From NCBI GenBank assembly GCA_045533335.1, contig JAZSHQ010000057.1, positions 33,573 to 97,572 on the forward strand: a stretch of 64,000 bases of DNA. Direction: 5' to 3'. Position numbers and translations under genes: made by a program. Of the stretch, positions 5,712-62,122 are shown one piece after another; position 1 is the stretch's first letter; each line of letters begins with the position of its first letter. This DNA comes from Eubacteriales bacterium. GTDB taxonomy: Bacteria; Bacillota; Clostridia; Oscillospirales; CAG-382. Under the pieces are notes generated by a model, which was given only the letters and a program-made list of their open reading frames with translations, was not told the DNA's origin and did no database searches.

Positions 5712-6224
5712 ATGTTTTGCTCTCAATGCGGAACAAATAATGCAGACGGCGCGGCTTTCTGTGCAGGTTGCGGCGCACCCTTGGAAAATGAACAGACTGT
5801 AAAGCAGGAAGCTCCTGTGCAGGATACTCCCGTACAGCCCGAAGCGCCTGTATATCAGGCACCCCAAAACGATTTCCAACCCTCGTACAATCCTACTCCC
5901 AACCCCGAACTTCCCGGTAAGGGAATGGGCATCGCAGGTATGATCCTCGGTATCGCTTCTATCGTGTTTATGTGCACCTTCTACCTCGCTCTTCCCTGCG
6001 CTATCGTAGGTCTTATCCTTTCCTGCAGCGCAAACGGCAAGGCAAAGAAGGCTGGAATGAAGAACGGCTTTGCGGTTGCAGGTATCATTACCTCTGCTAT
6101 CGGCCTCGGCTTGGTTGTTATCTATCTTATTTTCGCGGCTATCGGCTTCGGCATTTTGGCTGAATACGGCTACGAAATCGAAGATTTTATGGAATACACC
6201 GTTTTCCGCAGATTCTTTAAATAA
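5712..6224 (+). CDS. zinc-ribbon / DUF4190-like membrane protein
   Basis: MFCSQCG..CAGCG zinc ribbon, proline-rich linker and two TM helices. The ATG at 5712 has the best spacing from AAGGAGGA. Confidence 0.65.
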   Translation: MFCSQCGTNNADGAAFCAGCGAPLENEQTVKQEAPVQDTPVQPEAPVYQAPQNDFQPSYNPTPNPELPGKGMGIAGMILGIASIVFMCTFYLALPCAIVGLILSCSANGKAKKAGMKNGFAVAGIITSAIGLGLVVIYLIFAAIGFGILAEYGYEIEDFMEYTVFRRFFK

Positions 6225-6278
6225 AACGCAAAAAAGGGGTTGCTGTTTTACAGCAACCTTAATTTTTAAGGAAAAGCT

Positions 6279-6578
6279 ATGAATTCACAAAAAAATTTAC
6301 CCGAAAATAATAAAAACGCGGCAAAAACGCTTGCCGTAATGTCGCTCGTTTTGGCTGTGGCGGCGTTTTTCGTGTCCTCGGTGCTTTGCTATGTGTTCGG
6401 CTGTTTGTCGATCGTTTTTGCGGCGGTGGCAAAAAAGCTTGGATATTCGGGCAAAATACCCGTAATCGCAATCGTTTTTGCGGCGGTGGCGGTGATTTTG
6501 CAGCTGCTTTTCGATATCTTTTTCGATTCACTTGTCGAAAAGGGGTTCGAATTTATCCTTTCGCAGTTAGGTTGGTAA
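6279..6578 (+). CDS. small DUF4190-like membrane protein
   Basis: 99 aa with two hydrophobic helices and an internal repeat (VFAAVAKK / VFAAVAV). Confidence 0.5.
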   Translation: MNSQKNLPENNKNAAKTLAVMSLVLAVAAFFVSSVLCYVFGCLSIVFAAVAKKLGYSGKIPVIAIVFAAVAVILQLLFDIFFDSLVEKGFEFILSQLGW

Positions 6579-6975: not shown

Positions 6976-7444
6976 ATTTGTGGTATTTTTTGCCGTTGTT
7001 TATCGCAAACGCGCGGTAGACCTGCTCGGCAAGCATAACGCGCGCGAGCATATGGGGGAATGTCATTTTCGACATCGAAAGGCGTATATCGCATTCGCGC
7101 TTTAAGGCTTCGTCGAGCCCGAACGAAGATCCGATTATAAAGCATATCGGGCGTGTTTCGTTTGCGAAAACGTTTGCCAGCTCGGGGCTCGATAACTGCT
7201 TGCCCTCTATGCACATCGCGATCTTCAAAGCGTTTTTGGGTATGGCTTGGCGAATTAATGCGGCTTCCTTTTCAAGCGCGCGGGCAATAAGCTTTTCGGA
7301 ATCCTCACCAAAGCAGGATTCCTCTTTTATGCATACCGTTTTGTAATCGCAAAACGCCTTTAAACGCTTGATATATTCGGCTTCTGCATCTTTAAAATAT
7401 TTTTCTTTAAAGTCGCCTACGTGGATTATAGTTACAGAGTTCAT
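6974..7444 (-). CDS. rlmH: 23S rRNA (pseudouridine1915-N3)-methyltransferase
   Basis: 156-aa SPOUT protein with the typical RlmH N-terminus (IIHVGDFKEKYFKDAEAEYIKRL) and C-terminus (MTFPHMLARVMLAEQVYRA). Confidence 0.9.
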   Translation of the reverse strand: MNSVTIIHVGDFKEKYFKDAEAEYIKRLKAFCDYKTVCIKEESCFGEDSEKLIARALEKEAALIRQAIPKNALKIAMCIEGKQLSSPELANVFANETRPICFIIGSSFGLDEALKRECDIRLSMSKMTFPHMLARVMLAEQVYRAFAINNGKKYHK

Positions 7445-8034
7445 TTGTGCGCCTTCTTTCTTTTGGCAACTGTTTTCTTTTTGCGCACCGAGAAACCGAA
7501 ATCTCCTATCTTTTTGCCGAGCGTAAAGTAATCGCCGTGCGAATACGCCAAAAGCTCGGCGCGCTCGAGCATAAGCCTGCCGTTTTCGTCGATGATCGAT
7601 TCATCGACCGAAACGGCAACAATATCGGCAATAAACATATCGTGCGAGCCGAGGGGAATTATTTTATCCACCTTGCATTCAAGCGTGAGCGGGCTTTCGG
7701 CAACGCTTTTGCATTCCACTGCAAAGGAATCGGATTTTGTAAGCCCCGTTTGCTTGAATTTGTCGGTATCCTTGCCCGACCTTACGCCGCAAAAATCAAG
7801 CGCACGCACCATTTTGGTGTTCGGCAGATTAACGCAGAATTCGCCGCTTTGCTTTATAATTTCGTATGAATAACGCTCGGGGCGCACCGAAATATAAAGC
7901 TTCGGCGGGTGTGTAGCACAAATTCCCGTCCAGCCGATAGTTATTAAATTGTCGGTTTCGCCGTTCCCGCAGGAAACCAAAACCGCGGGCACGGGCGCAA
8001 GCAACGCCCCGCCCTTCCACTGCTGTTTAGCCAT
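7441..8034 (-). CDS. flavin reductase family protein
   Basis: Flavin reductase-like FMN-binding fold motifs (LAPVPAVLVS..NLITIGW). 4-nt overlap with rlmH. Confidence 0.75.
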   Translation of the reverse strand: MAKQQWKGGALLAPVPAVLVSCGNGETDNLITIGWTGICATHPPKLYISVRPERYSYEIIKQSGEFCVNLPNTKMVRALDFCGVRSGKDTDKFKQTGLTKSDSFAVECKSVAESPLTLECKVDKIIPLGSHDMFIADIVAVSVDESIIDENGRLMLERAELLAYSHGDYFTLGKKIGDFGFSVRKKKTVAKRKKAHK

Positions 8035-8063
8035 AATTTACCTTTATGATGAAGAATAACATA

Positions 8064-8197
8064 TTTTTCAAGGACAAGTGCCTTGAAAAATATACCTTGG
8101 AGCTTCGAACATTCGGACAAGCGGCAAAGCCGCGCGCACGAATGTTGCGCGAGCGAACGAAGCTCACAAAAGCCGAGCGAAAAGATGCTTTTTGCTC
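8064..8197 (+). ncRNA. structured intergenic element, family 1, copy A (candidate ncRNA or REP-like element; strand tentative)
   Basis: Four helices: 8064-8073/8081-8090, 8108-8115/8139-8146, 8121-8125/8129-8133 and 8175-8183/8189-8197. The linkers GACAA, GCGCA and GCGCGAGCGAACG are shared with copy B. Confidence 0.5.
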
Positions 8198-8211
8198 GAA
8201 AGCGAAGCGCT

Positions 8212-8278
8212 CGCCCCGCCCTTCCAATGTTGTTTAGCCATACATTTTACCTATATAATGAAGTATAATATATTTTCA
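8212..8278. repeat. about 66-bp direct duplicate (roughly five-sixths identical by hand alignment) of 8005-8070 (flavin reductase start codon, RBS and upstream)
   Basis: Both copies read CGCCCCGCCCTTCCAnTGnTGTTTAGCCATA...ATGAAGnATAAnATATTTT. The second copy keeps an ATG GCT AAA CAA decoy start. Confidence 0.8.
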
Positions 8279-8980
8279 TCGAAATAGAAGCGCATTTACA
8301 ATCTCATAAGCCAAGCGCAACCCTGCAGTTGCGGGGACGAAAACCGCGCTTGAAGGGGTGGCGCGCCCTGTAATTTCGTTCCTGCCTTCTATGCACTTGC
8401 TCGGCGGCTCGGTAGAGCAAACGACCGTTAAAGCATCTACACCGCGTGCGCGGAGCTCCTTGCGCATAACGCGCGCCAAGGGGTCACCCTCGGTTTTATA
8501 AATATCGGTTACGGTTATTTGCGAGGGGTCTAATCGATTGCCCGTACCCATCGAGGATATTATCGGAACGTTTGCGCGCTTCGCGCTTTGAATAAGCAAA
8601 AGTTTCGAGGTAACGGTGTCGATACAGTCGGCGATATAATCAAACTGCGTAAGGTTGATGCTTTCCGCCGTTTCCGCCGAATAAAACATATTTATGCCCG
8701 TAATTTCGCAATTCGGGTTAATATCTTTTAACCGTTCGGCACAAACCGTTGCCTTTTCGCGCCCTAACGTTGAATTAAGCGCAATAAGCTGGCGGTTGCG
8801 GTTGGTTTCCGAAACCGTGTCGCCGTCGACAACCGTTATTTTTCCGACACCGCACCGCACCAATGCCTCGGCACACCACGAGCCGACACCGCCCACGCCG
8901 AACACGGCAACGCTTGAATTATTCAATTTTTCGGCACCGTCTTCGCCGATAAGCGGAAGCGAACGTTCAAGTAAACTCAT
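8276..8980 (-). CDS. tcdA: tRNA threonylcarbamoyladenosine dehydratase (ThiF/MoeB family)
   Basis: Rossmann motif VFGVGGVGSW and ThiF-family length and architecture. Confidence 0.8.
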   Translation of the reverse strand: MSLLERSLPLIGEDGAEKLNNSSVAVFGVGGVGSWCAEALVRCGVGKITVVDGDTVSETNRNRQLIALNSTLGREKATVCAERLKDINPNCEITGINMFYSAETAESINLTQFDYIADCIDTVTSKLLLIQSAKRANVPIISSMGTGNRLDPSQITVTDIYKTEGDPLARVMRKELRARGVDALTVVCSTEPPSKCIEGRNEITGRATPSSAVFVPATAGLRLAYEIVNALLFR

Positions 8981-9000
8981 AAATGCACCCGGAATAGTTT

Positions 9001-9035
9001 AGATAAAAGATAAAAGATAATAGATAATAGATATT
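9001..9035. repeat. tandem heptamer (AGATAAW) x5
   Basis: agataaa agataaa agataat agataat agatatt, 21 nt upstream of the tcdA start. Confidence 0.85.
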
Positions 9036-9092
9036 TGTTGGTAAATGAAAAGTTTTGCGGGGTGCGGGGGTTAATATACGATGAGAATAATG

Positions 9093-9236
9093 TTTTTTTC
9101 GGGGACAGGTGCCTCGAAAAAAACACCTATGATGACCGAAAGTGCGGACAAGTCGCAAAGCGACGCGCACGCACTTTGCGCGAGCGAACGGGCATCTTGA
9201 AGATCGGGGTCCCCGAAAATGCTTGCATTTTTGGGG
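9093..9236 (+). ncRNA. structured intergenic element, family 1, copy B
   Basis: Helices 9093-9104/9112-9123, 9139-9146/9170-9177, 9152-9156/9160-9164 and 9211-9219/9228-9236. Same linkers as copy A, with compensatory stem changes. Confidence 0.5.
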
Positions 9237-9250
9237 CGAATTTGGGAGAA

Positions 9251-10975
9251 TCAATCAAACGGATTTACCGCATCTACAACGGCGGACCAATATTTTTCGT
9301 ATGTCACAAAGCCGGGGGCAGAGCCAGAAGGCTTTTTTAAACAGCGCACGCGGGTATAATCGACCTCGACGTTTCTGCTGCCGCGCTTTTCGCTGTAATA
9401 TGCGGCAAGCATAGCCGCCTCGGTATAATCGCGGTCGGTCGGCTCTTCGTTTCCGTTCGGGGTTAAAATAACGTGCGAGCCGTGGAAGCCCTTTATATGA
9501 AACCAAAGCTCGTTTTTCTCCGCCCCGCCGGTAAGATAATCGTTTTGGCGGTTGTTGCGGCCAACGCGCACCAAAAGTCCGTCGGTCGTGGTAAATGATA
9601 ACGGTTTCGCCGCAGGCGTTTTCTTCTTTTTGCCGCTTTGCGATTTATCGGCGATATATCCGCCCTCGACAAGCTCTTGTTTAATTTCGGCAAGCTCCTG
9701 CGGGCTTGCGGCACGCTCGATAAAGCCGAGCACGCCCGTAAGATAATCGCATTCGGCTTCGGTCTTTTTAATCTGCTCGGAAAGAATTACCGACGCACGC
9801 TTCATTTTGGCATATTTTTTATAATACTTCTGCGCGTTTTTTGCGGGTGCGAGTGAAATATCGAGCGCTACCGTCATTTCCTCGCCTGTTTCGTAATTCA
9901 TACCCGTAACGCTTTTATCGCCTTGGCGAATACGGTAAATGTTCGCGGTTATAAGGTCGCCGCGCATACGCATATCCTCCATCGCGCCGCATTCCTCGAG
10001 CTCGTTTTTAAGCAAAACAAGCTTTTTCTGCGCACGCGAAAGGTGGCTGTTTACTATTTTAACTATCTCGCGCGAGTAGCGTCCGATATTCACCGCCTCT
10101 TCCTTTTTGCCGAAATAATCGGTTAAAAGAAGCGAAAAGCTTTCGTATTTTCGCAAATCCGCTGCATTTCCGTACTGCGTAAGCGGTATAAAGGAATATT
10201 CTATCCCGTTGCCCTCGCTGTCGTAAACGGCGTTCGGGGTAAAATCGCTGTTTTCAAAACGGGTTATCAGCTTGCGAAGCTCGGATAAAAGCGGCAAAGC
10301 GTTTTCTTCGTAAATTTCGGTATCGCTGTCGCCGTAGGCGCAAAAGGCAATTTCGCGCGCGACAACGGGCGAAAAGCCGAAAAAGCTTTTTAAAAGGAAA
10401 TCGCAGGCGCGCGCCCCGCTTTTTTCGCGGCAGAGCGAAAGAAAATCGCTGTCGGTTATGCCGAATAACGAAATTTTGTCCTGCTTCGGGGGCATTTCAT
10501 AAGGCAAGCCCGCCATAATTCGGCGCACACTTGCGGTAATATCCGAAACCGAACTTGCGTTGATGATTTTTTGGTTTTCGTCGGCAAGGATAATGTTTGA
10601 ATATTTGCCCATCATTTCGGCATAAATATATTTGCGCTTAACGTAGCCCATTTCGTCGGCGGAATCGAACGCAAAGCGTATAATACGCTCGTTTTCCACC
10701 CATTCCGCGGCAACAAAACGCCCGTTTTGCAGGTGCTTTCGGTAAAGCATACAGGTAGGCGTCGGCGTGTCGGGGCGGGCAACCGATTCCTCGGTTATCG
10801 CCAAAATCGGGCGGGAAGCAGACGCCGAAATAACAAAGTTTCCGCGCTTGCCCTCGAAATAAAGCTGAAGGTAAAAGCAGGTTTGCGAGCTTTGGTGTAT
10901 CTTTTCCACCCTCGCGCCTGCCCATTTATTCAATTCCTGCGCCACGGCGGCGCAAAAAAGTCCGTCAAATGCCAT
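9251..10975 (-). CDS. rqcH: ribosome quality control protein RqcH (NFACT / FbpA family)
   Basis: 574 aa. NFACT-N start MAFDGLF, coiled-coil middle region, and a C-terminal NFACT-R segment (WFHIKGFHGSHVIL). Confidence 0.85.
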   Translation of the reverse strand: MAFDGLFCAAVAQELNKWAGARVEKIHQSSQTCFYLQLYFEGKRGNFVISASASRPILAITEESVARPDTPTPTCMLYRKHLQNGRFVAAEWVENERIIRFAFDSADEMGYVKRKYIYAEMMGKYSNIILADENQKIINASSVSDITASVRRIMAGLPYEMPPKQDKISLFGITDSDFLSLCREKSGARACDFLLKSFFGFSPVVAREIAFCAYGDSDTEIYEENALPLLSELRKLITRFENSDFTPNAVYDSEGNGIEYSFIPLTQYGNAADLRKYESFSLLLTDYFGKKEEAVNIGRYSREIVKIVNSHLSRAQKKLVLLKNELEECGAMEDMRMRGDLITANIYRIRQGDKSVTGMNYETGEEMTVALDISLAPAKNAQKYYKKYAKMKRASVILSEQIKKTEAECDYLTGVLGFIERAASPQELAEIKQELVEGGYIADKSQSGKKKKTPAAKPLSFTTTDGLLVRVGRNNRQNDYLTGGAEKNELWFHIKGFHGSHVILTPNGNEEPTDRDYTEAAMLAAYYSEKRGSRNVEVDYTRVRCLKKPSGSAPGFVTYEKYWSAVVDAVNPFD

Positions 10976-29519: not shown

Positions 29520-29572
29520 AAAATGCGCAATTCGCGATTGCAATTCCAAAATTATATACGCGTAATTAACAT

Positions 29573-29603
29573 AAAAAGGAGAAGCCTCGTACTTCTCCTT
29601 TTT
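29573..29603 (+). terminator. intrinsic terminator, first copy of a near-identical pair
   Basis: AAAAAGGAGAAG-cctcgta-CTTCTCCTTTTT. Confidence 0.75.
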
Positions 29604-30770: not shown

Positions 30771-31616
30771 ATGAAGCACAGACTATTTAAATTTTTGACT
30801 GTTGCAACTGTATTGTGCGTTTTTCTTCCGCTGTTTTCGGCGTGCGCTTTTACAAAGACCGAAACACCGAATGTTGACAGTTTTAAGAGCGACGTGAAGC
30901 TGGTAATATGTCCCGAATACCGATACGATTATAAAAACGACTTGAATACCGACGGTTTGCTTGTATCCGAAAATGATATTGTAGGTGTTTACGAGGAATT
31001 CTACACCAACGCGGAAGCAGAGCCGGATAAGTCCGAAGAGACCGTTGATTTTCAAAAAAACCCTCTTGATATGCTCAGCAATGTCGAAAAGCAGGTGGAA
31101 AATCTCTTTAAGGACGAAAAGAACGTAGATATTGACCTTTCCGAATACACATTAAGCTGGGCTTCGCAAGGTCAATACCGCTTCGTATATCGTTGGAAGA
31201 AAATCATAAATGGCTTTACCGTGCATGAAATAGGAGTCACGGTAAATTACGACGGCGAGATCATTTCCGCGTCATCCGCTCCCGTTGTCGATTTCGAAAA
31301 GGCAGAGACACTTGCGGACATCACAGACAGTGAATGGAGTAGGTTGAACGATATGGTTTTCGATGAAATGTTTTTGACTTTGACTGAAAAGGGATATAAA
31401 CTCGGTCAAAAGAGCTTAACTAAGAACTCACAAAGCATAGATCCCGAGGGAGTGTACGAGAATTATACAGGTCATTCCAATGTCGTATATGTTGAGTCGT
31501 GGCAAAGTTATGCGTTGCTATACAGATTGTCCTTCGCGGTTACTCCAAGCGGGTTTGATGCCGCAAACGAAAACGATTTTGTTGCTACAGTTCTCATTCC
31601 TTTAGACACCGAATAA
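30771..31616 (+). CDS. hypothetical lipoprotein (paralog B)
   Basis: ATG at 30771 lies 1 nt after the previous stop. Lipobox FSAC. Confidence 0.6.
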   Translation: MKHRLFKFLTVATVLCVFLPLFSACAFTKTETPNVDSFKSDVKLVICPEYRYDYKNDLNTDGLLVSENDIVGVYEEFYTNAEAEPDKSEETVDFQKNPLDMLSNVEKQVENLFKDEKNVDIDLSEYTLSWASQGQYRFVYRWKKIINGFTVHEIGVTVNYDGEIISASSAPVVDFEKAETLADITDSEWSRLNDMVFDEMFLTLTEKGYKLGQKSLTKNSQSIDPEGVYENYTGHSNVVYVESWQSYALLYRLSFAVTPSGFDAANENDFVATVLIPLDTE

Positions 31617-31619
31617 CCA

Positions 31620-31649
31620 AAAAAGGAGAAGCCTCGTGCTTCTCCTTTT
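31620..31649. terminator. intrinsic terminator, second copy of the pair
   Basis: AAAAAGGAGAAG-cctcgtg-CTTCTCCTTTT, between convergent genes. Confidence 0.75.
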
Positions 31650-32933: not shown

Positions 32934-34202
32934 TCAATCTTCACCTTTTGTCATATTGTTTGCCGTCATATAGTCTTCGACTCTGCATAAAAGCTCTGCC
33001 GTTTCTGCCTTGTTAAGCGTTTTTTCGGGCTCGAGAACTTCGAAAAATCCCGCGTCGGAGGCGGCAAGCATCGCCGAAAAGCTTTCCTCGGTCGCGCCTG
33101 CGTCTTCGCTTTCCTTGCGCGTGTTCGGAAGGTCGAGCGCGGCGGCGAGCATATAAGCCGCGTCTTCGACGGTTATTGCTTCCTTGGGCGAAAAGCTGCC
33201 GTTTTCAAGGCGGATTATCCCCTTTTCCGCGGCGGCGGAAAGATAACCCTTAAGCCCCGACGAAAGCCCCGTGTCATCGGATATTACGCTGTCGGCAACC
33301 GCGACTATATCGGTGTCCTGCCCCGAAACGTTCATAAGCATAACCAAAAATTCAAGCCTTGTTACCTCGGCTTCGGGGTCGAAATAGTAATTGCCGTTTT
33401 CGTAGCGGTAAACCATAACGTCGTTACTGCACATTCTGTGCGCGTAAAGGTGAAGCATATCGTCCTGCATATCGGCAAACTTAATTCCGCTTTCGTTCTT
33501 TTCTACCTCGATTTTAAGCGTTGCCGTTTCCGAAACCGCGCCGAATCGGTCGGTCACGGTATAAACCATAGCGTCGCTCCCCGAAAAGCCTTCTTCGGGA
33601 TAATAAATAATGCTTCCGCTTTCGCTCACCGAAATAAACCCTTCGCGCGGGTAGGTGATCACGTTAACGGTATAGCTGTCGCCGTTCGGCTCGTTTATGC
33701 AAAGCTCGCCGCCGCAGGCTATGCCCTCGACGGTCTTAATGCTGCTGTCGAGCGCAACAGGCGGTGAATTCAGCGAATCGGTAAAAACAATGTCGCACTT
33801 TATTTCAACGTCTTCAAAGCCTACGCTGTCGCAGGTGAAGCAAAAGCTTGCAAGCTCGGTGCTCGCGTTCGGTATAAATTTCAAATATCCGAGCGATTCT
33901 GCGGCAAGCGTCTGCCCCTCGTTAACCGCTTTTCCGCTGAACATAAGCGTGCCGCTTTGCGGGTCGGGTAGCGTTTTAAGGGTTATCTGCGAAAGTCCGC
34001 TTCCGAGTATCTTGTCGAAATCCTCCTTGGTAAACGATGCAAAATTCCCCTTTTCGCCCTGCTTGGTAACCGTCGTCTGCTTTTGCAGTATCGAAAACGC
34101 GGGCGGAAGACCGTCGCTCACCTCGGATTGCTGTGTATCGGCGCACGCAACGAACGCAAAGGCAAGCAAAATGCATAAAATAAACACAAACGGTTTCTTC
34201 AT
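32934..34202 (-). CDS. lipoprotein with Ig/cadherin-like domain and SLH-like C-terminal repeats
   Basis: Start at MKKPFVFIL with lipobox FVAC. SLH-like segments (FADMQDD...FDPEAEVTRLEFLVML). Confidence 0.55.
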   Translation of the reverse strand: MKKPFVFILCILLAFAFVACADTQQSEVSDGLPPAFSILQKQTTVTKQGEKGNFASFTKEDFDKILGSGLSQITLKTLPDPQSGTLMFSGKAVNEGQTLAAESLGYLKFIPNASTELASFCFTCDSVGFEDVEIKCDIVFTDSLNSPPVALDSSIKTVEGIACGGELCINEPNGDSYTVNVITYPREGFISVSESGSIIYYPEEGFSGSDAMVYTVTDRFGAVSETATLKIEVEKNESGIKFADMQDDMLHLYAHRMCSNDVMVYRYENGNYYFDPEAEVTRLEFLVMLMNVSGQDTDIVAVADSVISDDTGLSSGLKGYLSAAAEKGIIRLENGSFSPKEAITVEDAAYMLAAALDLPNTRKESEDAGATEESFSAMLAASDAGFFEVLEPEKTLNKAETAELLCRVEDYMTANNMTKGED

Positions 34203-36809: not shown

Positions 36810-36865
36810 AAAACAAAAAGAGCACTTTTGTGCTCTCTTTGTTTTTGGCGGAGAAGGTGGGATTC
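36810..36865 (-). repeat. duplicate of the tRNA-Ser 3' end (20 nt) plus downstream terminator
   Basis: 56-nt direct repeat of 36990-37045, offset exactly 180 nt. The terminator stem differs by compensatory changes. Confidence 0.85.
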
Positions 36866-36989: not shown

Positions 36990-37025
36990 AAAACAAAAAG
37001 GGTACGTTTGTACCCTTTCTGTTTT
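36990..37025 (-). terminator. intrinsic terminator of tRNA-Ser
   Basis: Minus strand reads AAAGGGTAC-aaac-GTACCCTTTTTGTTTTT. Confidence 0.75.
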
Positions 37026-37116
37026 TGGCGGAGAAGGTGGGATTCGAACCCACGAACGGTTTTATCCGTTACACGATTTCCAATCGTGCGCCCTCGACCA
37101 GCTAAGCGACTTCTCC
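37026..37116 (-). tRNA. tRNA-Ser (anticodon GGA), class II, CCA encoded
   Basis: Manual cloverleaf: acceptor GGAGAAG/CTTCTCC, anticodon arm CACGA-TTGGAAA-TCGTG, long variable arm AACGG..CCGTT, T arm GTGGG-TTCGAAT-CCCAC. Confidence 0.93.
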
Positions 37117-37283: not shown

Positions 37284-38369
37284 ATGCTGCCGCAGGAGCC
37301 ATACAAAAGGTTTGCAGTTATTACGTTATACGTTTCGGTGGGGCTCGCGGCGGCTTACCTTATTTTTAATTACTTATTGAGCGCGCTTTTGCCCTTTGCG
37401 GTTGCTTATCTGTTCGCGGAATGCTTCCGCCCGATAGTTAAATATTCGGAATCGCACAAAAAATTCCCCAAAAGGAGCTTTGTGCTTTTTGTCGTTTTGC
37501 TAGCCGCGGCGTCGCTTGTCGGGCTTATTTACGCGGTTTCACGCCAAGTAGTGCTTGAAATAAACGAGCTGGCAGGCAAAATCGGCGAAACTGTCGAGCT
37601 TATACGCACCGATGATGGTTACGCCTCCGAATTCATCGACAGAATATGCGGTTTTATTCCTTTCGTAGACCTGCGCGAACGGCTTTGGGAAATGCGGAGC
37701 AATCTCGATAACGAGCTGTGGTCGATAGCCGTTTCGTTTGGCGACGAAATGTCGGGCGGTATCGTTTCGTTCGTAGGGAGCGCGGCGGCTTTTTTGCCGA
37801 AAGCACTTCTGTTTGCCGCGGTGGTGATAATCTCCACCTACTATTTTGCGATAGACCGCGTAAAGATAAACTGTTTTTTTCTTTCGCTCTTTCCGAAAAA
37901 ACTGCGCCCGATGCTTAAAAGCACGCGCGATTCGCTTGCCGAAACGGTGGGGCGGTTTCTGCGCGCCTACGGTTTGCTGTTTTTAATAACCTTTTTCGAG
38001 CTTCTGCTCGCATTTATTATAATGGGAATAGAATATTCCTTCGTGCTTGCGCTGGTTATATCGTTGGTGGATGTTTTACCCGTGCTCGGGACAGGTACGG
38101 TGCTTATCCCCTGGGGAATTATTGCGCTTGTTTCGGGGAATATCGGTATGGGCATAGGCATACTTATCGCTTATGCGGTTATAACCGTTGTGCGCCAGAT
38201 ATTAGAGCCGAAGATTGTCGGCAAATTTATCGGTCTATCGCCGCTTGCCGCGCTCGCTTCGATGTATATCGGGCTTAAGCTTATGGGGATCGTCGGGCTG
38301 TTCGTCTTTCCGCTCGGCGCAATACTTTTGAAACGCATTTTGGAAACGAGAAAAGAAAAGAACGCATAA
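37284..38369 (+). CDS. ytvI: sporulation integral membrane protein YtvI (AI-2E transporter family)
   Basis: 361-aa polytopic protein with AI-2E-type topology and a YtvI-like N-terminus. Confidence 0.75.
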   Translation: MLPQEPYKRFAVITLYVSVGLAAAYLIFNYLLSALLPFAVAYLFAECFRPIVKYSESHKKFPKRSFVLFVVLLAAASLVGLIYAVSRQVVLEINELAGKIGETVELIRTDDGYASEFIDRICGFIPFVDLRERLWEMRSNLDNELWSIAVSFGDEMSGGIVSFVGSAAAFLPKALLFAAVVIISTYYFAIDRVKINCFFLSLFPKKLRPMLKSTRDSLAETVGRFLRAYGLLFLITFFELLLAFIIMGIEYSFVLALVISLVDVLPVLGTGTVLIPWGIIALVSGNIGMGIGILIAYAVITVVRQILEPKIVGKFIGLSPLAALASMYIGLKLMGIVGLFVFPLGAILLKRILETRKEKNA

Positions 38370-38376
38370 AAAAATG

Positions 38377-38440
38377 TTGAGAGAAAAACTTTTTGCATAA
38401 AGTTTTTCTCTCAAACTTTCTTTTCAAAAACTTTAATATT
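38377..38440 (-). repeat. family 3 palindromic terminator-like element (inverted orientation)
   Basis: 16-bp perfect stem 38377-38392/38399-38414. The reverse complement aligns with the copies at 53695 and 62059. Confidence 0.75.
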
Positions 38441-53694: not shown

Positions 53695-53756
53695 TTATTA
53701 AAAAGTTTTTTAAAGAGAGCTCGAGAGAGAGCTTTTTTCAAAAAGTTCTCTCTCGA
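53695..53756 (+). repeat. family 3 palindromic terminator-like element
   Basis: TTATTAAAAAGTTTTTTAAAGAGAGCTCGAGAGAGAGCTTTTTTCAAAAAGTTCTCTCTCGA aligns with 62059-62122. Confidence 0.75.
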
Positions 53757-58084: not shown

Positions 58085-58228
58085 GGGCGCAAAAACACGG
58101 CAAAACGCCGTAAATGCATCTTCTTTTATCCGGACTTTGACCGTTGGTTTCGGAATTTCACCGAATCTTGCATAACGCTCGCGGACTTTACCGCCAATCG
58201 GGAATTGCACCCTGCCCCGAAGATATAT
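58085..58228 (-). ncRNA. FMN riboswitch (RFN element) with terminator expression platform
   Basis: Minus strand reads CTTCGGGGCAGGGTGCAATTCCCGATTGGCGGTAAAGTCCGCGAGC...GGTGAAATTCCGAAACCAACGGTCAAAGTCCGGATAAAAGAAG, followed by ACGGC-gtttt-GCCGTGTTTTT. Confidence 0.9.
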
Positions 58229-62058: not shown

Positions 62059-62122
62059 TTATTAAAGGTTTTTGAAAAGAGAGTTCGAGGGAAAAACTTT
62101 TTGCAAAAAGTTTTTCCCTCGA
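62059..62122 (+). repeat. family 3 palindromic terminator-like element
   Basis: 15-bp stem GAGGGAAAAACTTTT/AAAAGTTTTTCCCTC with conserved 5' flank TTATTAAAGGTTTTTGAAAAGAGAG. Confidence 0.75.

Follow-up and report, generated by a model that had tools for sequence, protein, structure and literature searches.

The stretch analysed here, called the window throughout, comprises 64,000 nucleotides (nt) of contig JAZSHQ010000057.1 from a Eubacteriales bacterium (positions 33,573 to 97,572). It includes a NIF3-rqcH-tcdA-flavin reductase-rlmH operon, in which the flavin reductase gene (7441–8034) is supported by a Pfam Flavin_Reduct match, and two spacers of this operon harbor copies of one structured, non-coding element. 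Copy A (8045–8211) separates tcdA from the flavin reductase gene and copy B (9077–9236) separates rqcH from tcdA; both are located on the + strand of the window, which is the folded strand and on which both copies are read. A reading of the DNA without database searches, below the sequence-only reading, had pointed out an architecture common to the spacers at 8064–8197 and 9093–9236. Checking against the sequence confirmed it: the quoted sequences are correct, helices, loops and an invariant block recur in both copies, and the stems stay paired. The features of both copies are listed below; names from L001 to L046 denote loci fetched from relatives, metagenome-assembled genomes (MAGs) and metagenome contigs.

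8005–8034, − strand: upstream direct-repeat member at copy A (DR1), the real flavin reductase start (ATG 8032–8034, first 10 codons)
8045–8050, + strand: TATGAT, the −10-like hexamer of copy A, which lies 9 nt ahead of H1 and is recognized by TAnnnT conservation
8061–8093, + strand: H1 of copy A, an A/T-clamped 13-bp hairpin with the conserved loop ACAnGyG, supported by pairing and covariation
8094–8099, + strand: single-stranded linker ACCTTG with an invariant CCT (C36, C37 and T38 invariant in an 11-copy alignment, kept in 24 of 24 copies)
8100–8165, + strand: three-way-junction core of copy A, supported by covariation per helix, with P1 (8100–8107/8158–8165), H2 (8108–8115/8139–8146), the internal loop GACAA (8116–8120)/GCGCA (8134–8138), H3 (8121–8125/8129–8133, AAA loop), GC[GCGA]GC (8147–8154) and GAA (8155–8157)
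8166–8197, + strand: A-rich spacer (8166–8174) and variable hairpin module H4 (8175–8184/8188–8197) of copy A
8198–8211, + strand: terminal motif GAAAGCGAAGCGCT (consensus RAGCG-N1-3-AGCG), the 3′ end of copy A, with target-derived sequence directly after it
8212–8276, − strand: DR2, the duplicated, non-functional flavin reductase start (pseudo-ATG 8239–8241) plus leader, adjoining the tcdA stop codon (8276–8278)
9052–9219, + strand: block of copy B identical at 168 of 168 positions to the copy at the same site in L005, another species
9077–9082, + strand: −10-like hexamer TACGAT of copy B
9092–9124, + strand: H1 of copy B, loop ACAGGTG at 9105–9111
9131–9196, + strand: three-way-junction core of copy B (covariance-model score 120 bits), with P1 (9131–9138/9189–9196), H2 (9139–9146/9170–9177), GACAA (9147–9151), H3 (9152–9156/9160–9164), GCGCA (9165–9169), GC[GCGA]GC (9178–9185) and GAA (9186–9188)
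9206–9236, + strand: 3′ module of copy B, GGGGT followed by the hairpin CCCCGAAAATG/CATTTTTGGGG (9211–9236)

Aligned to each other, the copies share 77% identity over 107 gap-free nt, and minimum free energy folding of the + strand finds the helices with z-scores of −7.8 (A) and −4.3 (B) compared to dinucleotide shuffles. H1 is a 13-bp hairpin in either copy (8061–8073/8081–8093 in A, 9092–9104/9112–9124 in B) and exposes a 7-nt loop, ACAAGTG in A and ACAGGTG in B. The 8-bp helix H2 surrounds GACAA, the 5-bp helix H3 with its AAA loop and GCGCA, and the invariant block GCGCGAGCGAACG is present in both copies with the H4 hairpin after it. Both copies additionally possess an 8-bp outer helix, P1, which the sequence-only reading had not listed (GAGCTTCG/CGAAGCTC at 8100–8107/8158–8165 in A, GATGACCG/CGGGCATC at 9131–9138/9189–9196 in B); by enclosing H2 together with the invariant block, P1 creates a three-way junction. 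Positions 1–8 of that block fold into a GC[GCGA]GC mini-hairpin whose loop is of the GNRA type. The four helices originally described are thus real, but the element consists of five covarying helices plus a variable 3′ module. Copy A terminates after H4 with the RAGCG-N-AGCG motif, which is degenerate in copy B (9237–9250), where the rqcH stop codon follows at 9251–9253. Copy A is furthermore flanked by a duplicate of the flavin reductase start, with 29 of 31 positions identical between 8005–8035 and 8212–8242 and a further match of 8037–8067 to 8246–8276. The mini-hairpin, the −10-like box, the terminal motif and this duplicate were likewise absent from the sequence-only reading.

An exact-pattern scan taking one genome per species yielded nine matches in seven MAGs of Clostridia, Eubacteriales and Oscillospiraceae from animal guts. 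Together with the two window copies these 11 sequences align gap-free over 108 nt; 97.3% of the cells pair and 23 of 37 pairs carry double changes, a result reached by none of 500 shuffles, and slid controls pair at only 28–46%. We then built a covariance model from this alignment and searched the fetched loci with it, which picked up diverged copies both nearby and in other loci and brought the total to 24 copies, 22 of them beyond the window, in Clostridia/Oscillospiraceae MAGs and metagenome contigs. In this larger set, 97.1% of the cells pair and 29 of the 37 pairs are double-changed. H1 pairs at 99.7–100% with double changes at 9–10 of 14 pairs, and its A/T clamp is swapped as a whole (T-run/A-run to A-run/T-run) in seven copies. 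Double changes are likewise seen in P1 (5 of 8 pairs), H2 (6–8 of 8) and H3 (3–4 of 5), and the mini-hairpin stem covaries once, to AT[GCGA]AT in L017 with an unchanged loop. A subgroup comprising L023, L008c, L027c, L021c, L026c and L014 bears a different insert in place of the H2-H3 arm and keeps H1, the CCU linker, P1 and GGCGCGAGCG-N-ACG. The H1 loop (NGYG) could moreover engage CGCA of the internal loop in a pseudoknot: 92.5% of the cells pair, and variation is limited to U·G to C-G without double changes.

Non-Watson-Crick pairs reveal the strand on which this fold is maintained. Across the 24 copies, 31 cells are G·U and only 4 are A·C; therefore the helices are optimized on the + strand of the window, antisense to rqcH, tcdA and the flavin reductase gene, in agreement with what the two copies alone had suggested to the sequence-only reading.

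The covariance model assigns 120–126 bits to the window copies and at most 18 bits to any other position of the window, and with filters switched off it found only these two copies in the 64 kb and no third. Searches for isolated terminal motifs or modules elsewhere in the window stayed at chance level. Rfam 15 gave no match for the region 7900–9400 at E ≤ 10, none on the element in eight other loci at E ≤ 1, and at gathering threshold for the whole window only an FMN riboswitch (RF00050, 105.7 bits, 58114–58228 on the − strand) and a tRNA. Copy B had no match in plasmid and phage collections (blastn, distant mode), a first pattern had none in viral contigs, and the four matches of a looser pattern there were discarded as chance since they have no covariance-model score. 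A scan of JGI metagenomes returned 12 pattern matches, four of which are true loci; the family is thus rare in that collection. Literature searches for an already described element of such kind returned nothing specific. The element represents a previously undescribed family of structured non-coding sequences, well supported and missing from Rfam 15, in line with the failure of the sequence-only reading to match it to a known family.

A tRNA-Ser(GGA) gene lies at 37026–37116 (− strand). A 56-nt direct repeat (36810–36865 and 36990–37045, 88% identical) consists of a hairpin with flanking A- and T-runs and the 3′ end of this tRNA gene; its second copy lies 180 nt away at a position without a tRNA call and could reflect duplication of the tRNA end, for instance an integration scar.

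We compared the occupancy of orthologous sites by fetching the NIF3-rqcH-tcdA-flavin reductase-rlmH operon from relatives via flavin reductase homologs. Site B denotes the rqcH/tcdA junction, site A the tcdA/flavin reductase junction and site C the flavin reductase/rlmH junction.

L028–31 and L036–38: A empty, B empty, C empty
L003, L004 and L023/24: A element, B empty, C empty
L027: A empty, B empty, C element
L008: A element, B empty, C element
Window: A element, B element, C empty
L005: A element, B element, C element
L039: A scar (leader only), B decayed copy, C empty
L022: A scar (H1 and leader), B empty, C empty
L026: A remnant with the core deleted, B empty, C element
L021: A foreign 218-aa open reading frame (ORF), B remnant, C element with the core partly deleted
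L042–46: A foreign 218-aa ORF, B remnant, C scar

All three junctions are therefore polymorphic for presence and absence of the element, as is typical of mobile DNA. Fully empty operons are compact, with junction gaps of 28, 4 and −4 nt (L028–31) or 7, −8 and −4 nt (L036–38). The insertion point at site A is the same in the window and L023 while the core subtype differs (A-type and C-type, respectively), and internal deletions are apparent in the copies at site A of L026, at site C of L021 and at L002-2475. Site A of L021 (3302–3958) and of L042–L046 is occupied by a predicted membrane protein of 218–222 amino acids without a Pfam match, which replaces the element; in these close relatives, whose flavin reductases are 97–98% identical, the flavin reductase gene still has the element-type ribosome-binding site (AATAGGTAAAACTTATG).

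Where site A or C is filled, the beginning of the gene downstream recurs as a direct repeat on either side of the element. The simplest repeats span 32 nt at site A, where they begin with TTATG and reach codon 10 of the flavin reductase gene (L003/4/8), and 38 nt at site C, from the ATG to codon 12 of rlmH (L008, L027). The rpiB copy (L002) is instead accompanied by a duplicate of the gene's final seven codons and stop codon, about 18–24 nt of the 3′ end, and the repeats measure 24 nt in L014 and 28 nt in L015, the latter including the element's own leader box. Longer repeats of 62–82 nt, which contain the leader and part of H1, are found in the window, L005, L021 and L023. The repeat copy beside the preceding gene retains the native junction: in L003 it holds the overlapping tcdA stop and flavin reductase start ATGTCTAA, which equals the empty site of L027. 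The gene copy in use is therefore the one across the element, and before it stands an element-borne leader, ATTGTATAGGT-N6-8-ATG, unlike the native AAGGA and GGAG sites for ribosome binding in empty operons.

Scars of lost elements carry the same leader. L021 possesses a repeat-element-repeat arrangement with repeats identical at 64 of 64 positions, compared to a single repeat with an element-type leader in L042/L045, and L039, whose flavin reductase is 97% identical to that of the window, exhibits only ATTATATAGGTAAAATTT-ATG at site A. Since the real gene start of the element-less L039 carries the window's DR2 variant (CAACAT), DR2 represents the native copy. The longer repeats, and species-specific variants common to both repeat copies, would be explained by gene conversion from the working copy, by which the repeats may have been kept alike or extended.

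Truncated gene starts are a by-product of these duplications. A short ORF on the − strand (8212–8241, pseudo-ATG 8239–8241; MAKQHWKGGASASLSSKKHLFARLL*, translated by eye) enters the element, and L027, L008 and L005 contain similar truncated rlmH starts whose stop codon lies inside the terminal motif of the element. Such duplicated starts are traps for gene callers and may also be translated as decoys.

Copy B provides a further view of the history of the element. The coding regions of the window and L005 are 79–88% identical, with 61–70% identity at third codon positions and about 35% divergence at synonymous sites, while the block at 9052–9219, encompassing leader, core and half of the copy B module, is identical at 168 of 168 positions with a sharp drop of identity on both sides. 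Relatives closer than L005 have a degraded copy at site B. Plain vertical inheritance under constraint is therefore unlikely; more likely, an identical active copy served as donor for conversion or inserted anew. Copy A, by comparison, agrees with its L005 counterpart at 98 of 108 positions, and the differences are compensatory. Two further observations concern the surroundings of copy B. The last ~47 nt of the rqcH coding region (9254–9300) are identical to L005 at 46 of 47 positions, compared to a gene average of 83%, and adjoin the identical copy B block with the diverged module between them. Between the tcdA start and the element, a tandem repeat of AGATAAA (4.7 units, 9001–9033) is missing from L005 (41-nt gap), and a promoter scan finds minus-strand promoter-like sites for tcdA there.

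Elsewhere, the neighbors of the element are rplA/rplJ, rpiB/DUF4652, pgk/tpiA, DUF1854/ABC transporter and tRNA-Val, and further copies lie downstream of queA, between convergent serA and oxidoreductase genes and upstream of ruvC. A link to translation-related genes, considered because of tcdA, rlmH, rqcH, queA, the rpl operon and tRNA, is weakened by pgk/tpiA, the ABC transporter, serA and ruvC. The sequence-only reading had also offered an antisense or cis regulator of tcdA and of the flavin reductase-rlmH operon; a role dedicated to these genes is not supported, since the same element is found in unrelated operons and is lost or degraded in close relatives. Nor does its orientation suit a riboswitch or 5′ leader, as only one copy (L015) is situated upstream of a co-oriented gene, ruvC. 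The copies follow an orientation rule: all nine located between co-directional genes are antisense to them, and sense-oriented copies occupy convergent, divergent or operon-end positions. This rule may reflect strand-specific insertion or selection, and the GC skew of the window is too weak to decide on a replication-strand explanation. At the rplA/rplJ junction of L002, an intact L10 leader (RF00557, 58.6 bits, 6153–6296 on the + strand) follows ~290 nt past the element; the insertion therefore spared a known regulatory leader.

At the 5′ end, a TAnnnT hexamer (TACAAT, TATAAT, TATGAT or TACGAT) is located upstream of H1 in 23 of the 24 copies, compared to 7.5 in shuffles, and ends 8–9 nt before H1 in most of them. 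One subfamily carries a small hairpin with a T-run (AAAACACGAAGTGTTTTT) before the hexamer. The element is probably transcribed from this −10-like box of its own. At the other end, P1 is followed in every copy by an A-rich spacer (CACAAAA) and one to three hairpins built as GC-clamp, AAAA...TTTT and clamp. The clamps vary between copies, and recurrent module types are reshuffled from copy to copy; the sequence of H1 bears no relation to that of the 3′ modules, and in most copies the RAGCG-N1-3-AGCG motif follows the last module. A truncated copy in L002 (2475–2900, + strand) has its core cut after GGCGCGAG and continues with at least four hairpin modules of different types; the modules are thus able to multiply or recombine independently. 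Read on the minus strand, a T-run follows some 3′ modules (L006, L007, L002) but is missing in window B and L001, and H1 is called terminator-like there only with an A/U-rich stem base. Two further small hairpin repeat families of the window (38368–38412, 53712–53756 and 62076–62120; 29567–29602 and 31614–31649) resemble the 3′ modules in their design of GC clamp, A-run...T-run and clamp, and are probably bidirectional terminators.

Coding and promoter functions were considered as well. Inspection of the aligned copies revealed no conserved reading frame, and the ATGATG of B-type linkers is missing in A-type linkers (TTGGAG); a small peptide gene or type I toxin was rejected on these grounds and since the stem changes are compensatory rather than codon-like. 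A restart of operon transcription by the element was dropped because no conserved −35/−10 pair could be recognized by eye on the gene strand in H1 or the leader.

Taken together, we favor the interpretation that these copies belong to a new family of modular, structure-dependent elements of ~170–200 nt with current or recent mobility in uncultured gut Clostridia/Oscillospiraceae, and we assign it a probability of about 0.62. The option of a small mobile element, one among several in the sequence-only reading, is the one sustained by the orthologous presence and absence, the target duplications and the deletion scars. A comparison of the different states suggests the following order of events. 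Insertion would duplicate 18–38 nt of the target, and the insertions that survive at gene junctions would be those that rebuild the interrupted start, by means of the element-borne ribosome-binding leader, or the interrupted end. The repeats might then be kept alike or extended, presumably by gene conversion, until recombination between them deletes the element and leaves a 'solo leader' scar; copies may also decay through internal deletion. The folded strand would most likely act as an RNA of ~150–200 nt that starts 6–8 nt past the −10 box, has H1 at its 5′ end and is, within operons, antisense to the host mRNA. We infer that the fold serves propagation, being recognized by a putative trans-acting enzyme, rather than regulation of a particular host gene, and an antisense effect on tcdA, the flavin reductase gene or rlmH would be a side effect.

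Several observations weigh against this interpretation. No gene for a transposase, reverse transcriptase or recombinase is present among the neighbors of any copy, nor is tnpA or tnpB, and the 64 kb contain only two copies. About half of the copies, window B included, lack a flanking repeat of at least 12 nt, so that target duplication may not be obligatory or may decay, and duplications varying between 18 and 38 nt fit, to our knowledge, no standard bacterial transposition chemistry that could be named. Terminal inverted repeats were not detected when the first and last 40 nt of six copies were compared (best score 4–5, equal to the shuffle mean). As regards transcription, the copies have no conserved −35 upstream of the TAnnnT box, a consensus sigma-70 scan did not call sites at the 5′ ends of the element, and no intrinsic terminator was found on the + strand after it. 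A folded intermediate of single-stranded DNA (ssDNA) could also account for the strand bias and the GNRA/GNA loops, and the compensated stem changes at the orthologous site A could mean in-place selection for a host function.

This last point leads to the alternative with the most in its favor, which we nevertheless regard as unlikely. Here, the copies would be host small RNA genes whose 3′ tail runs through the duplicated start, is antisense to the start codon and first 10–12 codons of the flavin reductase gene or rlmH and represses their translation, with the CCU linker as an anti-Shine-Dalgarno seed. The −10 box at a fixed distance with H1 at the predicted 5′ end agrees with such genes, as do the invariant loops and covarying stems among orthologous site A copies and the conservation of copy B at 168 of 168 positions. 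Furthermore, within each species the downstream repeat matches the gene start at 94–100% and shares with it species-specific variants such as AGACAT, TTTTGCCAT and AGCCAT, indicative of either concerted evolution or selection for complementarity. Gene conversion can account for concerted evolution, however, and no duplicated target exists at copies such as window B, L001, L006, L007, L010 and L017. Close relatives (L039, L021, L042–46, L022, L026) lose or degrade the element without a replacement, the same scaffold resides in unrelated operons, and no + strand terminator defines the tail. At rpiB, moreover, the repeat is the 3′ end of the gene with the decayed copy 5′ of the element, an arrangement that suits a target duplication rather than a guide or tail.

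We consider it distinctly less probable that the function resides on the minus strand, as an intercistronic mRNA element acting as terminator, attenuator, processing or stabilizing structure and equipping the downstream gene with a new ribosome-binding site. Several copies do show, when read on the gene strand, 3′ modules made of a hairpin and then a T-run (L006, L007, L002-5760 and weakly window A), H1 is called terminator-like on the minus strand, and the leader endows the flavin reductase gene and rlmH with a TATAGGT-N6-8-ATG ribosome-binding site at filled and scarred sites; all operon-internal copies (9 of 9) have this orientation. Yet the G·U to A·C ratio of 31:4 places the optimized helices on the other strand, the TAnnnT box is sensible on the + strand only, and the orientation is reversed at convergent and divergent sites (L006, L014, L015). 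Efficient termination would also silence conserved downstream genes, as by eye no conserved gene-strand promoter follows the putative terminator.

It is even more doubtful that the element is an RNA-guided or RNA-templated mobile element in the sense of a scaffold joined to an 18–38-nt target-identical guide, comparable to TnpB/IscB omega RNAs or the homing spacers of CRISPR-associated transposons, or one spreading via cDNA or template switching. This would explain the reuse of exactly the same sites across species and the orientation rule, and directly after the terminal motif there are segments identical to the target whose length (32 and 38 nt) is spacer-like. It would also suit the different core subtypes at one insertion point of site A (A-type in the window, C-type in L023), the patchy occupancy of site C across species, the identical copy B in diverged species and the strict orientation to transcription within operons. 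On the other hand, no effector gene adjoins any of the 24 copies, Rfam omega-RNA and HEARO models do not match, many copies are without a target-identical segment and the geometry at rpiB is reversed. Since new copies extend through the −10 box and ~10 nt further upstream, they are also not copied from the element's own transcript. Chance similarity or a simple local duplication of a spacer without function, for which only the distance of 1 kb between the window copies in one operon speaks, can be dismissed in light of the 22 further copies in other genomes and loci, the 29 of 37 double-changed pairs (0 of 500 shuffles) and scores of 120–126 bits compared to at most 18 bits elsewhere in the window.

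The interpretation as a mobile, structure-dependent family can be sharpened, albeit tentatively and at rather low odds, to a mobile small-RNA gene of a kind undescribed in bacteria. Its RNA or ssDNA would be the substrate or guide of an enzyme, and strand-specific insertion, gene-regenerating duplications of 18–38 nt, return to the same sites in different species and passage between species, to which the identical 168-nt block points, would follow; in its strongest form, a programmable guide would lie after the terminal motif.

Among known systems, the element appears to work most like mosaic intergenic repeats and those MITEs (miniature inverted-repeat transposable elements) that rewire their neighbors. 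It resembles the bacterial interspersed mosaic elements (BIME) built from repetitive extragenic palindromic (REP) units of enterobacteria, and the Neisseria intergenic mosaic elements (NIME), in its intergenic location, interchangeable hairpin modules of varying number and type and variable orthologous occupancy. REP units are single palindromes of 20–40 nt that occur in hundreds of copies on mRNA and are linked to RAYT transposases. In contrast, the element comprises a 108-nt multi-helix junction plus modules, invariant loops, a −10-like box and long duplications, and is folded on the strand opposite to the mRNA with two copies in 64 kb. The comparison to REP/BIME made by the sequence-only reading thus holds for the mosaic of hairpin modules and fails for size, complexity, strand and copy number. 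BOX elements of Streptococcus pneumoniae (boxA-boxB(n)-boxC) are likewise modular, non-coding, ~100–300 nt long, variable in their modules, stably folded by prediction, situated between genes and able to affect neighbors. The ends of BOX are partly complementary to each other, while the element has no terminal inverted repeats, and we know of no BOX element that rebuilds gene ends through long duplications. MITEs such as Correia/NEMIS, RUP and ERIC share the short, non-autonomous insertions and presence/absence polymorphism, and some of them rewire neighbors through the outward promoters, terminators or ribosome-binding sites they bring. The element lacks both of their defining features, namely terminal inverted repeats and a short duplication of fixed length, since its duplications vary between 18 and 38 nt and extend up to 82 nt.

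Likeness to other systems is confined to single traits. Derivatives of the insertion sequences IS200/IS605 and the omega RNAs of TnpB/IscB also combine strand-specific folds, a scaffold with flanking target, orientation bias and non-autonomous derivatives; however, IS200/IS605-type elements insert without duplicating their target, on the 3′ side of a short, fixed motif, and their two ends bear similar hairpins, whereas the element has duplications and dissimilar end hairpins. Integron attC sites share conservation of structure over sequence, strand-specific folding and a position between co-oriented genes. An attC site is a single imperfect hairpin of 57–141 nt with R/L boxes and belongs to gene cassettes, unlike the element, which by this description differs in its junction fold, the interruption of housekeeping operons and the flanking duplications. 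Eukaryotic short interspersed elements (SINEs) offer an analogy only: they too are small structured-RNA genes that multiply together with promoter elements and have target duplications of variable length, but the element shows no sign of reverse transcription, has no A-rich tail and carries its −10 box upstream of the presumed transcript.

For genome annotation, the duplicated starts (8212–8241) and long spurious ORFs across the element mislead gene callers. The element adds a structured non-coding family missing from Rfam 15, from uncultured gut and rumen Clostridia, and it illustrates an unusual way for a small insertion to survive in compact, overlapping housekeeping operons, in that it duplicates the interrupted gene end and brings along a ribosome-binding leader that persists as a working translation signal once the element is lost. 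This offers a concrete route to intergenic spacers, new ribosome-binding sites and possibly antisense promoters within operons. If the fold should prove to be the handle of a new mobilization enzyme or a guide scaffold, the family would hint at a new class of mobile DNA that depends on RNA or ssDNA structure.

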